Positions 18,787 to 42,790 of a stretch of DNA of 64,000 nucleotides are shown piece by piece (the stretch's first letter is position 1; every line of letters begins with the position of its first letter). The DNA is taken from IMG/VR virus record IMGVR_UViG_3300037483_001116, positions 32,001 through 96,000 of that record, one strand, 5' to 3'. This DNA comes from a virus. The translations under genes and the position numbers were made by a program. A model generated the notes under the pieces. It had not been told where the DNA came from. It saw only the letters and a program-made list of their open reading frames with translations, and ran no database searches.

Positions 18787-19211
18787 GGGCTCGGAGCACA
18801 CCACCCAGCACTGTGAGGCGGTTCCTCGGTCACAAACTTGTCGCCGGCCTCAAACGCGGCAACCACATCCTCGACCGACTCATCCTCTTCGAAGAAATCC
18901 TCGTCGATGACAGCGTCAACCGCTACATCCTGCCGCCGCAACGCCTCAAGGTCTTCGTCGGTGTACGTCACCCACTCCACCTCAGGCGTGGCGTAGGCAG
19001 CAGCCTTCGCTCGCTCCAACAGCGCCGCGGCGTCGGCCGCTTCCAGCTGGATACTGACATACTCCACCACAGCCTCCAACGCCTCCAGAAGCACAACATC
19101 TTTGGCGCCTGGCCCAAGAGCCAAACGTCGAAGAATCTCTGCGTTTTCAGCCACAACTCGCTCCAGGACGTCTCGGAACTGTTCGTCTCGGGTCGCGGGT
19201 TCTTCGGTCAT
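18783..19211 (-). CDS. acidic hypothetical protein
   Basis: AGGAGG RBS, MTEEPATRDEQF. Confidence 0.6.
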   Translation of the reverse strand: MTEEPATRDEQFRDVLERVVAENAEILRRLALGPGAKDVVLLEALEAVVEYVSIQLEAADAAALLERAKAAAYATPEVEWVTYTDEDLEALRRQDVAVDAVIDEDFFEEDESVEDVVAAFEAGDKFVTEEPPHSAGWCAPSP

Positions 19212-19279
19212 GAACTGATGATGCCTCCTCCTGAAAGAAAGGGAGGCCCGGGGCCGAATATCCGACGACCCCGGGCCAA

Positions 19280-19650
19280 CTGAAATAGTCTTGAGAGGAC
19301 TATGCGCGTTCAAGCGCGTTCAGTGAACCGCCAATTTGTATCGCTACCAACATTTAAGGACACGTCTAAGTCCTGCGGAACTGACGCTCTGCCGCTAAGC
19401 TACGGGTTCATGTTTGGAGAACCCGCCAGGATTCGAACCTGGGCCTTCGGTTGTTTGTGATCGTGTCCATTCGATGCAGCGAATTGCGGCAATATTTGAG
19501 TTTGTGGCAAGAGATTGAAAGGCTGCGGGACCAGTTTTAGGGGCGCCCCACTCGGGCCCTCGTACTGATGTCTTACCTGGGGCTGGTTTGGCCCGAAGGC
19601 CACCCCAGGTGACTAAGTTTGAGTTTGTGCCAACCCACCCGAAGGTGGGT
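19280..19650 (-). ncRNA. structured RNA with circularly permuted tRNA-like domain
   Basis: T-arm plus CGGGTTC-T-CCA precedes GAACCCG-TAGCTTAGCGGCAGAGC D-arm; flanked by long stems and a terminator-like hairpin (19244-19277). Confidence 0.65.
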
Positions 19651-19661
19651 GTCTATGGGAC

Positions 19662-20399
19662 CTACCAGCCCAGAGCGGCGAAGATGGCGTCGCCGATCTT
19701 CACGTCCGGGGTGTCGGTCATGTTGGCCTGCTCGCGGGCGACCTTGACGGCGGCCTGCAACTTGGTGGCCTTCTCGACCAGCTCACGCCGACGGGCCTCC
19801 GGAATAGCGCCGGAGAACTGGATCGTGGTCCAGTCGCCGACGACGACGTCCTCGTAGTACACCTCAACCTGGGCCGGGTGCTTGTCCGTCGCGGCGGCCT
19901 TGACGTGGTTGCGCGGGACCTTCTTCGACCGAGTCTTGGCGCTCGGCGTGGTCTGGAAGGATTCGGAGTTGTCCGAATAGGTCCAGGTCTCGCTCGGGTC
20001 CAGGACCGGCAGCTTGCCGACGAAGGTGACGTAATCGACGAGCTTCTTCTCCAGGGTCAGCAGCGTGGTGACCGGCACTGCCGTTAGGACTACGGCGCCG
20101 TCAACCACCACGTCCGCGCGGGCGGCCTGGTTACCGGCGTCCATCGTGGCAGTCAGGTCCAGCATCCGTACCTGCGACGCGATGACGTTGTCGAGGATCT
20201 CCTCGACTCGCAGCTGCAACTTGACGCCCTCCGACGGCAGGGTCTCGCCGTCGTCGTCGCGTGGCTTATACGTCTTGGTGATGCCGGCCAGCAGTGCGGT
20301 CTTCTGGATGGCGTGGTAGGCCTGCGTCAGGGCCGACTCGCCGTTGGACTTGGCACCCTTCGTTAGGGCGATGACCTGGTTCAGCTTGAGGTTTGCCAT
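19662..20399 (-). CDS. conserved actinobacterial/phage coiled-coil protein
   Basis: MANLKLNQVIA...KKVPRNHVKAAATDKHPAQVEVY; strong codon bias; promoter 20444-20472. Confidence 0.8.
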   Translation of the reverse strand: MANLKLNQVIALTKGAKSNGESALTQAYHAIQKTALLAGITKTYKPRDDDGETLPSEGVKLQLRVEEILDNVIASQVRMLDLTATMDAGNQAARADVVVDGAVVLTAVPVTTLLTLEKKLVDYVTFVGKLPVLDPSETWTYSDNSESFQTTPSAKTRSKKVPRNHVKAAATDKHPAQVEVYYEDVVVGDWTTIQFSGAIPEARRRELVEKATKLQAAVKVAREQANMTDTPDVKIGDAIFAALGW

Positions 20400-22341: not shown

Positions 22342-22608
22342 CCTCCACGAAAAGTGCTGGGAGCTAGAATCGATCCGGAGGGGGTTCCAATGGCCCAGAC
22401 CCCAGCAAGGTATCTACGAATAGATCCGCACGTCCAAGAGAATGGACCGATCAAACGATTCAGGCACGATGACGATCGGCCCTAGCCGATGGCTTTCATG
22501 CGTGGCCGCCGCATAGTGGCGCCAAAGCCCAACCTCCTGCTCCAGCTCGGTCACCCTCTGCCGCAGCTCGACCTTCGTCATAATCTCCTCCGTGGGCTTG
22601 AAGAATGT

Positions 22609-22736
22609 TGGCTGACGGCGGGAATCGAACCCGCATAGATGTCATCTCGCACGAGGCATCGTTACCGGGCTCAGGGATCCTGCGTGCGCAGTCAAACCCC
22701 TTCCTCCGGCTCCAGGCCGCCTGGGACCATCAGCCA
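22609..22736 (-). ncRNA. enlarged tRNA-like RNA
   Basis: GGCTGATG/CGTCAGCCA acceptor, canonical T-arm, ~85-nt non-canonical core. Confidence 0.5.
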
Positions 22737-25260: not shown

Positions 25261-25405
25261 TGCAGCTCCCCTTTTTTTGATGCCGGTAATGCCCTTCAGG
25301 AACCCCTACCCCCGGCTCTCTGCTCGGACTTTCACCGAAGAGTACATCCCCTCTGACCTTGCGGCCGTGGGACTGTTCCGGGAGTGCGAGGGTTCCTGAA
25401 GGTCG

Positions 25406-25477
25406 TGTCCTGTATGGGAATCGAACCCATGACTCAAGGCTTTAGAGGCCTTCTCTCTGCCACTGAGCTAACAGGAC
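25406..25477 (-). tRNA. amber-suppressor tRNA (anticodon CUA)
   Basis: stem AAGGC/GCCTT, loop CTCTAAA. Confidence 0.85.
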
Positions 25478-31641: not shown

Positions 31642-31770
31642 GTGTGGAAATCCCTGCGTGGCCCCTTGGGCCTCGCCCTCAGGAAACCTGCAGTTCCCCG
31701 GCTCCAGGGATCGATATGTTGCCGAGCGCATTTCTGGCCGGTTGATCATTCCGGCGTCCATGCGTTTCCG

Positions 31771-31850
31771 TGGAAGTGCGGGGAGTCGAACCCCGGTCCA
31801 GTGGTGTTCCGTCGTGCGGCTTTGCACCCCTGTCGTTACCAACCACCCCC
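31771..31850 (-). ncRNA. mini-tmRNA (tRNA-like domain only)
   Basis: GGGGGTG-GTTGGTAACGAC...GGAC-CGGGGTTCGACTCCCCG-CACTTCC-A; G3:U70; no D-stem; no coding domain. Confidence 0.65.
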
Positions 31851-34406: not shown

Positions 34407-34540
34407 TTGGCCTGGGCGGCGAGGCATTGCTGCCCGACGCCTTGCATGTCCCCACCCTATGGGCGCGGCCCAGGCTACGAAACTGACGTTGGCCCCTGAG
34501 TCAGTCAATCAGGGATGACGGGCACTAAGCGCCCATGCCG

Positions 34541-34613
34541 TACCCCACGCGGACTCGAACCGCGACTCCGAGCTTCTGATGACACGGTGTGTTGCCATTT
34601 ACACCAAAGGGGC
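34541..34613 (-). tRNA. atypical tRNA with expanded anticodon loop (centred on TCA/TCAG)
   Basis: CCGTG-TCATCAGAAG-CTCGG. Confidence 0.6.
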
Positions 34614-34699
34614 TTGAGACTGGCGTCGGCTCCCTGGGCCAGTCAACCGGGGTGGTGTAGCCGCGAATCCCGGGGAAGAATCCGGGGGCAGCATTGCCG

Positions 34700-40383: not shown

Positions 40384-41997
40384 TCAGTCCTTGTGAGTCC
40401 AAGGCCACTCGGCTCGCTGTCCCGATTCGATCATCGGGATCATAGCGAAAGTTGCATCCGTCAATCCCGCGAGCTGGTGCCGGGTGCTGGAGGTGTCCAA
40501 CATAGCCGGTGCGTAACCCGCAAGATTGAGTGAATAGATCGGAACTGATGTCGGGATCTGGGATCCGACGTCGCCCTGCCAGTAGCCCCGGCCGGGCCCG
40601 AAGGTTTGCTCATCGGTGAAGATGGCAACCCGGTCGTGGCCCTTGAAGGTGGCCTTCAAGGCCGCCGCGGTGTGGGTGCCACCGCCGCGGACTTTTCGGT
40701 TGAACTCTTCCACCGACCGTAGAACGCTAGCGCCCTTCCGATGCTTGTGCTCCCAGACAGTGTCGTCGAACCCATACAGGTCCACCTGCTCGCCCTTGTT
40801 CGCCAAGGCGACACCGAACAGGGCCGCAGCGTGCAGAATCTGGATCTTCGACTCCTTGGACAGAGTCTTGCCGACCATCGACCCAGACGTGTCGATCAGC
40901 ACCAAGGTGCGATGCCGCCACGCCGGGATGTTGGCCGTCGAATACTGCAGCGCGGTCTCCAGGGCCTGCACCCACTGTGACCCTTGGGCGTACAGGTATG
41001 CCGTCAGGAACCGGAACGGCAACTGCCGCGAGTTCATGACGCCGGTCTGGCTTTCCAACCGCTCGCAGACCAGCCTGGTGGCCTCGCGCGAGATGCCGGC
41101 CTCCTGGAGGTTGCGCAGGTTCTTCAGCAATGCGCCGAAGCCCATGACTGGGATCAGGTTCTCCCAGACGTCGGCGGTCATGGCACCCCACGAGGAGGCC
41201 TGCTCCCACGTGATGCCGGCAGCCCGCAGAATCTCCTCCGAGTCGTCGCCGAACATCAGGTCCCGCTTCGCCCTGTCCGGCAGGGCCAGGATCGCCGCCC
41301 GCTTCTGCAGCATAGGCAGCTCTTCCGGGATCGGCGTCTTCGAGTCTCGCCGCGAATCCAGGATGTACTTGAACAGCGCCGACTGGGCGAACGACTTCGG
41401 CTCCGGGTGGCACAACTCGATCACGTCAGCCATGGTGACGGCCTTGTCGCCGCCGTTCCACTTGATCAGGGCGTATTCGTTGTACTTGGCCCGTGCCGCG
41501 TCCCCGAATCCACGCCGGATACCGGCTGGAATCTTGCGGCCGTAGGTGGCCAGCCAGTAGGCCAAGCCGTCGGCGACTTCGTCAGGCCGGGCGACCATGT
41601 AGAAGTCGCGCAGCAGCTGACGGGAAGGTCCGGCGGCCGAGCCTGGCTGACCGGCGGCCAGCATCGTCTTCGCGGCTTCGACGGCGGCGACGACCGCGGC
41701 GGTGCGGATGTTGGCCTTGTCCCGCAGCCAGGGGATGAACTCCAGAATCCAGGCCGGGTCCTCGGCGGCAACGGTCCGGACCAGAGTGGCGAGACGCGCA
41801 TTGCGGTCGTTGGCCTTCTCGTGGAAAGTCTCTTCGCCGTAGAAGGTAGACACGGCCAGGAGGAACAGGTCTGACTTGGCGTCACGGCTGTACGCCGGGG
41901 CACCTAAGTAGGTCTTGGTGTCCTGGGCGACAGTACGTAACGGAGAGCCGGCGTTGGGTGTGGCCGTCTTGGTGCCGCGCTTGTTGACGGTGGCCAT
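40384..41997 (-). CDS. rsr: Ro60/TROVE RNA-binding protein
   Basis: DLFLLAVS.FYGE.TFHE, YALIKW, ALLKNLRNL, SRQLPFRFLTAY, vWA IDTSGSM, FTDEQ. Confidence 0.92.
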   Translation of the reverse strand: MATVNKRGTKTATPNAGSPLRTVAQDTKTYLGAPAYSRDAKSDLFLLAVSTFYGEETFHEKANDRNARLATLVRTVAAEDPAWILEFIPWLRDKANIRTAAVVAAVEAAKTMLAAGQPGSAAGPSRQLLRDFYMVARPDEVADGLAYWLATYGRKIPAGIRRGFGDAARAKYNEYALIKWNGGDKAVTMADVIELCHPEPKSFAQSALFKYILDSRRDSKTPIPEELPMLQKRAAILALPDRAKRDLMFGDDSEEILRAAGITWEQASSWGAMTADVWENLIPVMGFGALLKNLRNLQEAGISREATRLVCERLESQTGVMNSRQLPFRFLTAYLYAQGSQWVQALETALQYSTANIPAWRHRTLVLIDTSGSMVGKTLSKESKIQILHAAALFGVALANKGEQVDLYGFDDTVWEHKHRKGASVLRSVEEFNRKVRGGGTHTAAALKATFKGHDRVAIFTDEQTFGPGRGYWQGDVGSQIPTSVPIYSLNLAGYAPAMLDTSSTRHQLAGLTDATFAMIPMIESGQRAEWPWTHKD

Positions 41998-42076
41998 GTC
42001 TTTCTCCCTCCAGGGGCAAACGAAGGCAGGGGCGGATCCTCGTCAGAGAATCCGCCCCCTGCTGGGACGTTGATAC

Positions 42077-42183
42077 TGTCAGGCGACGAGGTGACCCAAG
42101 AGTCCGCACCTTTGCGGCCTAGCCAACGAGTGGCTGGGGAGGAATTGAACCTTCGAAGTATCTCGGGCCGAACAGATCTGACA
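42077..42183 (-). ncRNA. Y RNA-like gene 5
   Basis: TGTCAGATCTG...GATACTTC...GTCGCCTGACA closing stem. Confidence 0.7.
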
Positions 42184-42194
42184 ACGAAGCTAAG

Positions 42195-42280
42195 GCTGGC
42201 ACGGGCAACAAGGGTGGGGCAACGCGATTTGGTCAAATTTGCAATTTGAAGTAGCGCTACTCCGGCGGATCCGTGCCAGC
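42195..42280 (-). ncRNA. Y RNA-like gene 4
   Basis: GGCACGGATCCG...GCTACTTC...GTTGCCCGTGCC. Confidence 0.7.
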
Positions 42281-42378
42281 GATCTTGAAGCAGGCCCATG
42301 TCCTGCAATGGGGTGTGGCTAGTCGGGCGGGGAAGGGTAAGGCCCGGAGTGGGCTGGTCGGGGATGGCCAGTCGATGG

Positions 42379-42445
42379 GTCGCCAGACAACTAGACGGCT
42401 TTTATCCCATTGATGAAGTAGCCCGAACCAAACGGACCTGGCGCC
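42379..42445 (-). ncRNA. Y RNA-like gene 3 (minimal)
   Basis: CGCCAGGTCCG...GCTACTTC...GTTGTCTGGCG. Confidence 0.7.
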
Positions 42446-42501
42446 CCGTTCGTGATCAAAACCTTGCCGGTCCCGGAGGACGACAAGGAGCAATATATTG
42501 C

Positions 42502-42635
42502 CCACCAGGCAACAAATCGGCGCGAGGTATAGAGTTCTACCAATTAAACTACATCGCCATAGCGGCGACGCCGGGACTCGAACCCGGGCCTCTTCATTAA
42601 CAGTGAAGTAACCCCATCGCCAGCGGATCTGGTGG
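42502..42635 (-). ncRNA. YrlA-like Y RNA 2
   Basis: CCACCAGATCCG...T-arm, loop-closed acceptor, D-arm...GTTGCCTGGTGG. Confidence 0.8.
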
Positions 42636-42644
42636 AAAGCTGTG

Positions 42645-42790
42645 TGTCGCCAGGCAACGTTTCGACTGAGGCAACGTTACGCGCTCTAGCCAGGCTGAGC
42701 TATACGGACATGGGTGCCCGCACCTGGATTTGAACCAGGGACCTCGCCCTCCGCATGGAAGTAGCCCCGATGTCCTCGGATCTGGCGACA
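42645..42790 (-). ncRNA. YrlA-like Y RNA 1
   Basis: GTCGCCAGATCCG...GGTTCAAATCC...TAGCTCAGCCTGGCTAGAGC...GTTGCCTGGCGAC. Confidence 0.8.

Follow-up and report, generated by a model that had tools for sequence, protein, structure and literature searches.

The closest described counterparts of the RNA reported here are the YrlA Y RNAs, tRNA mimics built into Ro60 (Rsr) particles in bacteria and phages. In these RNAs, a T arm, a loop-closed acceptor stem, a D arm and an anticodon-stem analogue form a permuted domain that sits on a stem made by the flanking sequences; a conserved loop in that stem offers a plausible handle for protein, and several units or modules per locus are possible (RF02553; PMC4201824; 10.1101/312249). 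All of these traits recur in the RNA family described below. The YrlA of M. smegmatis, which is encoded next to rsr and bound by Rsr, is the sole YrlA with a 7-bp acceptor stem; RNase P cleaves it both in vitro and in living cells, where the resulting 5′ piece gains a CCA (PMC4201824). A 2021 jumbo-phage paper has TROVE acting with a tRNA-like partner. Two further systems show a comparable arrangement. In two-piece (permuted) tmRNA, the T arm and the 3′ strand of the acceptor (plus CCA) precede the acceptor 5′ strand, and a short intervening segment is removed. The circularly permuted tRNA genes of Cyanidioschyzon merolae, as presented through the citation of Soma et al. 2007 in 10.1101/312249, have the same order of halves and a loop that closes the acceptor stem in the precursor.

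A domain of this type is found in an uncultured phage. The window, i.e., the whole 64,000-nt stretch of DNA that was analysed, comprises bases 32001-96000 of the 158-kb record IMGVR_UViG_3300037483_001116. ARAGORN identifies 44 tRNA genes on its minus strand. The downstream end of this array is made up of a gene for a DUF7873 protein and, on the same strand, a non-coding unit (approximately 19233-19661) that fills the ~430 nt between the DUF7873 stop codon and the next gene, whose ATG is at 19211 (Table 1). The unit contains no credible ORF. It ends with a 9-bp GC hairpin followed by a T-rich tail, to judge from sequence a probable terminator; GC hairpins at the equivalent 3′ place covary in relatives. 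Simple promoter and terminator scans of the window made no calls, this hairpin included, and no promoter-like site was found between the DUF7873 gene and the RNA. The first-pass annotation had described an RNA of about 370 nt with a terminator-like hairpin after it. Both are present, the hairpin lying just outside position 19280 where the annotated interval began, and inclusion of the terminator corrects the length to ~430 nt. The small hairpin directly 3′ of the stop codon belongs to the end of the mRNA or else forms the 5′ part of the unit: hairpins of different sequence occupy the equivalent position in relatives, and the unlinked Herpetosiphon RNA (see below) has none of this type and begins at the next motif. 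Elsewhere in the window the phage encodes a tmRNA-like element (31768-31850) and Ro60 (TROVE; 40384-41997), the latter ~21 kb from the RNA unit and directly preceded by five Y RNAs with a common handle, AGAUCCG...CUACUUC...UUGCCUG.

Table 1. Features of the DUF7873 gene and of the adjacent RNA unit (window coordinates)
Feature	Position	Strand	Basis
DUF7873 protein gene, 245 aa	19662-20399	-	ORF; stop TAG 19662-19664; Pfam PF25283
7-bp hairpin ACCCACC/GGUGGGU, loop UUCG, directly 3′ of stop codon	19633-19650	-	sequence
RNA 5′ domain	19507-19632	-	alignment with two-headed RNAs; variant common to L104 and L016
First CACAAACUCAAA copy	19618-19629	-	
Long hairpin of 5′ domain, followed by GC-rich segment	~19576-19609	-	
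Second CACAAACUCAAA copy (19495-19506); central linker motif in the family	19490-19506	-	alignment
Conserved 3′ core	19332-19489	-	R1 covariance model, 93.8 bits; helix covariation
Helix 1	19476-19482 with 19341-19347	-	
Internal loop AUCGAAU, opposite CUUAAAUG, between helices 1 and 2	19469-19475, opposite 19351-19358	-	
Helix 2 (outer, GGACACG/CGUGUCC)	19462-19468 with 19358-19364	-	
Permuted tRNA-like domain	19380-19451	-	sequence, pattern scan, R1; weak Rfam YrlA match
T arm CCAGG/UUCGAAU/CCUGG	19426-19442	-	
Acceptor 3′ strand CGGGUUC	19419-19425	-	
UCCA	19415-19418	-	
Linker AACAU, 5 nt	19410-19414	-	
Acceptor 5′ strand GAACCCG	19403-19409	-	
D arm	19386-19400	-	
3′ tail: two small hairpins, then GC hairpin and T-rich tail	19233-19331	-	sequence
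GC hairpin, 9 bp	19245-19277	-	
T-rich tail at end of unit	19233-19244	-	

The core of the unit is a YrlA-like, circularly permuted tRNA mimic that lacks an anticodon loop and stands on a long stem with an internal loop. Its elements come in the order ACCGA (3′ strand of the anticodon-stem analogue), variable loop AGGCC, T arm, acceptor 3′ strand, UCCA, linker, acceptor 5′ strand, UA, D arm and UCAGU, which is the 5′ strand of the stem analogue and forms 5 bp with ACCGA. All seven acceptor pairs form. The first-pass annotation had reported the permuted order, and every element that it named could be located on the minus strand. The same is true of the proposed outward extension of the anticodon stem by GGACACG/CGTGTCC and further helices: past the 5-bp stem analogue the structure widens into an asymmetric internal loop, which is conserved, and continues in two helices, both of which covary in relatives. 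The elements are beyond chance since an independent covariance model (see below) recognizes them with an E value of 1.6e-24 and the helices covary across relatives. ARAGORN made no tRNA or tmRNA call in 19233-19661, and the Rfam tmRNA and permuted-tmRNA models found no match there. A 12-mer reported to occur twice upstream of the domain, CACAAACTCAAA, is indeed present in exactly two copies (19495-19506 and 19618-19629; chance expectation 0.20), a count reached in one of 100 shuffles. The copy nearer to the core aligns with a conserved linker of bacterial relatives, AAACUCAGA...CAGCAUUCGCC.

Homologues of the DUF7873 protein populate 3849 protein clusters. Among cultured phages they occur in 48 records (phages of Gordonia, Arthrobacter, Rhodococcus, Pseudanabaena, Microcoleus and Vibrio), and among bacteria in the genomes of at least 585 species. 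Every annotated phage locus has an unannotated gap of 350-1100 nt on the 3′ side of the gene, often inside a tRNA cluster. Pattern scanning of these gaps revealed permuted tRNA-like modules, usually two in tandem, lying about 100 and 245 nt past the stop codon. The bacterial RNAs follow a common plan: a 5′ hairpin, CUGA-type repeats, module 1 and a conserved linker are followed by module 2, the motif CUUAAAYG, a 3′ segment pairing back to the linker, and a GC hairpin. The two-module plan of most relatives had not been seen by the first-pass annotation. The window RNA is a one-headed variant that corresponds to module 2. Where most relatives have module 1, it has a long hairpin and a GC-rich segment instead, and a pattern scan of 19507-19632 found no T arm or acceptor. 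An equivalent replacement, with two CACAAACUCAA copies as conserved flanking motifs, occurs in L104, whose protein is 73% identical to that of the window and whose sequence ends after 249 nt, and in the phage contig L016; among the loci compared, these are the only other one-headed forms. The part that is never lost consists of module 2, the internal loop AUCGA(A/C) opposite CUUAAAYG and the two helices of this loop. Since the window RNA makes do with one head, module 2 and the internal loop appear to be the indispensable part.

A covariance model, R1, was built on an alignment of 35 two-headed RNAs over their module-2 region; neither the window nor L016, the RNA closest to it, was included. 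Six helices were written by hand on the seed alignment, and the model spans 154 positions. In the seed, pairing holds in 90.1% of cells, and in 34 of 37 pairs both bases have changed; none of 500 shuffles reaches the observed pairing values, and slid partners give only 40-47% pairing. R1 matches the window at 19332-19489 from position 1 to position 154 with a score of 93.8 bits, the DUF7873 gene ending 173 nt upstream of the match. This is the only strong match in the whole phage. The Ro-linked Y RNAs align with positions 43-103 only (36 and 26 bits). The end-to-end match of the one, against the partial match of the others, places the window RNA in the DUF7873-linked family and outside the local Y RNA set. 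The phage therefore holds both kinds of RNA, which differ everywhere except in the tRNA-like core. Across the family, the 154-position core is kept from phages to Streptomyces and Chloroflexota. The relatives from Vibrio phages (28% identity at the protein level) gave no R1 match; there, the module was recognized by pattern scan only.

The association between gene and RNA was assessed in several genome sets. In 78 of 80 species genomes, 47 of the 78 being outside the R1 seed, a full-length match lies 150-260 nt downstream of the gene, on the gene's strand. In one of the two exceptions (L030) a repeat inserted in the acceptor loop interrupts the RNA; in the other (L083, Herpetosiphon aurantiacus) the RNA is elsewhere in the genome. 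Eighty metagenome loci gave 68 full matches, two contig-cut ones and eight loci too short to judge, i.e., 70 positives among 72 assessable; the remaining two (L148 and L174) had no RNA within 1.5 kb of flank. Cultured phages with the RNA are GodonK, Mimi, NiceHouse, Keelan, Ziko and Pam2. Beside the RNA, the DUF7873 gene has no conserved neighbour, the next commonest gene family being present in 18 of 80 loci. For a phyletic test, 302 genomes were drawn evenly, 151 from Chloroflexota and 151 from Actinomycetota. The gene is present in 10 Chloroflexota, eight of which have a strong full-length R1 match as opposed to none of the other 141; the remaining two carriers show a divergent match directly downstream of the gene. 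In Actinomycetota, the three carriers are exactly the three genomes with a strong match, adjacent to the gene each time. Overall, a strong full-length RNA is found in 11 of 13 carriers and in none of 289 other genomes (Fisher p 2e-18), and all 13 carriers have the RNA once the two divergent copies are counted. A weaker full-length match in a genome devoid of DUF7873 (G185) was rejected: it is a tRNA-Pro/tRNA-Gly tandem, tandem tRNAs being a known class of false positives (PMC4201824). These data support gene-RNA pairing as the rule in Actinomycetota, Chloroflexota and actinophages. The two are co-inherited, whether adjacent or unlinked, and the structure that the first-pass annotation would have expected to be lacking downstream of homologues, were its idea wrong, is conserved in bacteria and phages alike.

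The protein itself gives few clues. It matches Pfam PF25283 over residues 5-243 (309.7 bits, E 2.1e-92), and searches of PHROGs, PADLOC and NCBIfam returned no match. The AlphaFold2 model (mean pLDDT 88.7) has long helical hairpins around a beta sheet. The gene had been described as encoding a conserved coiled coil; conserved it is, but with this mix of helix and sheet it is not simply a coiled coil. Foldseek against the PDB returned nothing at E ≤ 0.001, and a sequence profile search of the PDB nothing below E 0.1. The best VIA match, 3kdq, has a Z of 9.9 but an rmsd of 8 Å, the remaining VIA matches being generic helical hairpins; in the ESM Atlas only unnamed clusters with scores of 0.80 appeared. 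The best-conserved stretch of the protein is basic, R-T-K-K-x-P-R-N-H, a composition that would suit nucleic-acid binding and proves nothing. No paper containing "DUF7873" was found in the literature, nor any on the RNA family; the only paper from 2018 on that was found to connect YrlA with phage and tRNA-like RNA is the one on the Rtc operon. The family is absent from Rfam.

The reading that we favor, with a probability of roughly 0.6, is that the unit specifies a stable structured non-coding RNA of a widespread family and that this RNA serves the DUF7873 protein as a dedicated partner. The obvious objection is that an element lying directly downstream of a gene, co-oriented with it in ~97% of loci and, in the window, separated from it by no promoter-like site, might simply be a cis-acting 3′ UTR of the DUF7873 mRNA: a signal for processing or stability, or an autoregulatory site, without any independent function. 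Processing signals of tRNA-like shape do exist, RNase P punctuation being the case in MALAT1/mascRNA. This explanation seems improbable in light of six Chloroflexota (Herpetosiphon-like) genomes that have kept gene and RNA on different contigs or 1.8 Mb apart. The latter is the distance in the complete H. aurantiacus genome, where each is present as a single copy and the RNA lies between a glycosyltransferase gene and a chloride-channel gene, with a promoter-like sequence (TTGCCC-17-TACAAT) just upstream and a U-tailed terminator just downstream. Moreover, a tRNA gene intervenes between the DUF7873 gene and the RNA core in Keelan, as does an ORF in the Microcoleus phage My-WqHQDG, and the covarying structure that comes on top of one tRNA-like signal, some 300 nt, exceeds the needs of a processing site. 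Co-retention without linkage argues for an RNA that works in trans as a partner of the protein, and against a mere 3′ UTR of the mRNA. It is still less credible, to the point of being negligible, that the unit is a functionless, decaying relic of a tandem tRNA pair. Such tandems do match YrlA and R1 weakly and the unit does stand at the end of a tRNA array; in a relic, however, one would not expect the two acceptor halves to pair with each other in seven positions out of seven, the flanks to pair and covary, or the whole 154-position core to be kept from phages to Streptomyces and Chloroflexota. The idea was rejected on account of the covariation, the full-length R1 match and the presence of the RNA downstream of the gene in 78 of 80 species genomes.

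Two other explanations concern the tRNA-like head. The RNA could be an additional Ro60-bound Y RNA, a divergent YrlA serving the Ro60 of a phage that already encodes this protein and five Y RNAs, DUF7873 being then accessory or an unrelated neighbour. The topology is that of YrlA, and the YrlA model RF02553 aligns full-length with 19356-19467. The score, however, is 26.6 bits where Rfam's gathering threshold stands at 69, with an E value of 0.0035 for a 1.2-kb stretch and of 0.18 for the window; relatives score between 25 and 38 bits. The unit does not score like an ordinary YrlA; had it done so, the first-pass proposal of a distinct protein-RNA pair would have been undone. As that proposal had also noted, the unit lacks the signature of the five Y RNAs: AGATCCG, present in Ro-linked Y RNAs at 42624 and 42777, is absent from 19233-19661. 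The Ro-contact motif GNCGAAN0-1G is not found near the 5′ end, the nearest sequence, AUCGAAUG, being one base off and located in the internal loop. The YrlAs reported so far are encoded at most 4 kb away from a Ro60 gene and on its strand; here the distance is ~21 kb. The pair occurs without TROVE in all five complete carrier phages, in 12 of 32 carrier bacteria and in five of 10 carrier Chloroflexota, and where TROVE is present it is not adjacent. Absence from carriers means that Ro60 cannot be the general partner; the RNA tracks DUF7873, not TROVE. Beyond missing the Ro handle, the family differs from YrlA in being much longer (~370-430 nt), usually two-headed, and endowed with conserved motifs of its own, AUCGA(A/C) and CUUAAAYG. 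On the other hand, TROVE is more frequent in Chloroflexota carriers (5/10) than in non-carriers (2/141; p 8e-6), the five carriers forming one clade, and in one genome (G176) the unlinked RNA is ~4.5 kb from a TROVE gene. Because of this enrichment, and of the loop motif AUCGAA being one base away from GNCGAA, we retain the Ro link as a minor and unlikely rival. Alternatively, the unit might specify the precursor of a chargeable RNA used in translation, from a permuted tRNA gene or as a two-piece tmRNA-like molecule. In favor of this are the 7-bp acceptor stem with its fully encoded UCCA and the precedent of M. smegmatis YrlA; furthermore, an NCCA is encoded far more often than expected by chance, by 36% of the module-1 copies and 22% of those of module 2. 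Yet the NCCA is not conserved in the family. Unlike two-piece tmRNA, whose removed segment has its counterpart here in the linker with its predicted cleavage, the window RNA has neither a tag reading frame nor a pseudoknot region, and ordinary helices close its anticodon side; unlike permuted tRNA genes, it has no anticodon loop to regenerate, the stem analogue opening instead into the internal loop and two helices. To our knowledge, the splicing endonuclease pathway is absent from bacteria and phages. As the ARAGORN and Rfam searches yielded no tRNA or tmRNA call and the anticodon loop is missing, both the permuted tmRNA and the permuted tRNA gene readings were rejected. The phage already has its tmRNA-like element, and a chargeable precursor appears a poor prospect.

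Under the favored reading, i.e., an RNA dedicated to the DUF7873 protein, the two probably form an RNA-protein particle that is undescribed, resembles Ro60/Y RNA in shape and is independent of Ro60. From their co-inheritance we infer that the protein binds the RNA; contact would most likely be at the internal loop and stem, in the manner of Ro60 with the Y RNA stem. The tRNA-shaped head, or heads, would offer a tRNA-like surface to factors that handle tRNAs, candidates being RNase P, the CCA-adding enzyme, modification enzymes and toxins that target tRNAs. In the phage, the pair is probably made and processed together with the tRNAs.

Features of the acceptor bear on the fate of the head. All seven pairs are maintained in 126 of 130 distinct module-1 copies and in 84 of 86 module-2 copies. 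The stem is followed by A in module 1 and by U or G in module 2, and then nearly always by C. Applying the rule drawn from M. smegmatis, where a 7-bp stem goes together with cleavage and CCA, the processing envisaged in the first-pass annotation, we infer that the DUF7873-linked family should be an RNase P substrate. A stem of this length makes it probable that the acceptor loop is opened by RNase P, as happens in M. smegmatis YrlA, to give a two-piece RNA; it is plausible that cleavage of the linker would leave such an RNA with a chargeable CCA end. A full version of this scheme, in which a Ro60-independent particle has its heads opened by RNase P, completed with CCA and perhaps aminoacylated, so as to present an anticodon-less "tRNA" that engages translation or tRNA maintenance, is speculative and, in our estimate, has the odds well against it. 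A protein-held anticodon-less "tRNA" could serve as a decoy or sensor for toxins attacking the acceptor ends of tRNAs, and for phages, the benefit of having the pair in their tRNA arrays would be that translation is protected while they infect.

If the pairing is what we propose, permuted tRNA mimicry would be a general design for RNA-protein machines and not a peculiarity of Ro60; a second and much more widespread RNA would have the YrlA-type head with a different protein partner. Tractable carriers include Streptomyces, Herpetosiphon aurantiacus DSM 785 and the SEA-PHAGES phages GodonK, Mimi and NiceHouse. The phage studied here is a useful case, having both RNA systems in one genome with clearly different handles and showing that a single head suffices. 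For genetic work, gene and RNA come naturally separated at the unlinked loci of Herpetosiphon.

Physical linkage between the DUF7873 gene and its RNA is not universal. The Herpetosiphon aurantiacus DSM 785 chromosome carries a lone RNA of this type, with a promoter-like site and a terminator of its own, 1.8 Mb away from the sole DUF7873 gene (3008209-3008934). The same unlinked arrangement is found in five related genomes. In a Herpetosiphon-like genome (G176), about 4.5 kb separates the unlinked RNA from a Ro60 (TROVE) gene on the opposite strand; in sister genomes of G176, the two lie far apart.

An uncultured phage contig (L018) harbors three additional modules, approximately 1 kb downstream from its DUF7873 RNA, that may constitute a Y RNA set. 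In Vibrio phages D517 and K479, a single permuted module comes after a distant DUF7873 homologue (28% identity). Its acceptor loop, starting with GCCA or ACCA, contains a 25-nt hairpin, and the module was not detected in searches with R1, the covariance model of the conserved 3′ core. Hairpins of 20-35 nt are present in the module-1 acceptor loop of some Streptomyces RNAs. That the module 2 acceptor loop tolerates large insertions follows from a metagenome-assembled actinobacterium (L030), in which this loop has gained approximately 100 nt of short, GGGAGTCTT-like direct repeats.

In the window, five Y RNAs precede the phage Ro60 gene, all sharing the handle AGAUCCG...CUACUUC...UUGCCUG. Two of them (42503-42615 and 42648-42768, minus strand) include permuted tRNA-like domains, their matches to YrlA being weak (29.3 and 26.4 bits, respectively). 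Between tRNA genes lies an element that matches R1 weakly over its full length. It has a perfect T arm (GCGGG/UUCGAUU/CCCGC) and poor acceptor and D arms, and elicited no call from ARAGORN; decay of a tRNA-like element may account for it. The tRNA array includes an 83-nt element that clears Rfam's cut-off for tmRNA, solely by virtue of a tRNA-like domain.

Coordinates of the loci discussed (R1 scores in bits)
Feature	Source	Position	Strand	Remark
R1-matching element between tRNA genes	window	22536-22677	-	26.2; full-length but weak
Amber-reading tRNA (CUA anticodon), tRNA array	window	25405-25477	-	Pyl in ARAGORN
83-nt element, tRNA array	window	31768-31850	-	above Rfam tmRNA threshold
tRNA with four-base anticodon (tcag), tRNA array	window	34540-34614	-	
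Ro60 (TROVE) gene and Y RNA set	window	40384-42790	-	
Ro60 (TROVE) gene	window	40384-41997	-	
Lone DUF7873-type RNA	H. aurantiacus DSM 785 (G028) chromosome	1172188-1172452	-	locus L185, ~1501-1765
TROVE	G176, contig C8	80088-80291		
Unlinked DUF7873-type RNA	G176, contig C8	84841-84996		
Region of module 2 acceptor-loop insertion	L030	4990-5140		
Three additional tRNA-like modules	L018	5092-5555		34-39
Single permuted tRNA-like module	Vibrio phages D517 (L021), K479 (L022)	2950-3100 in each
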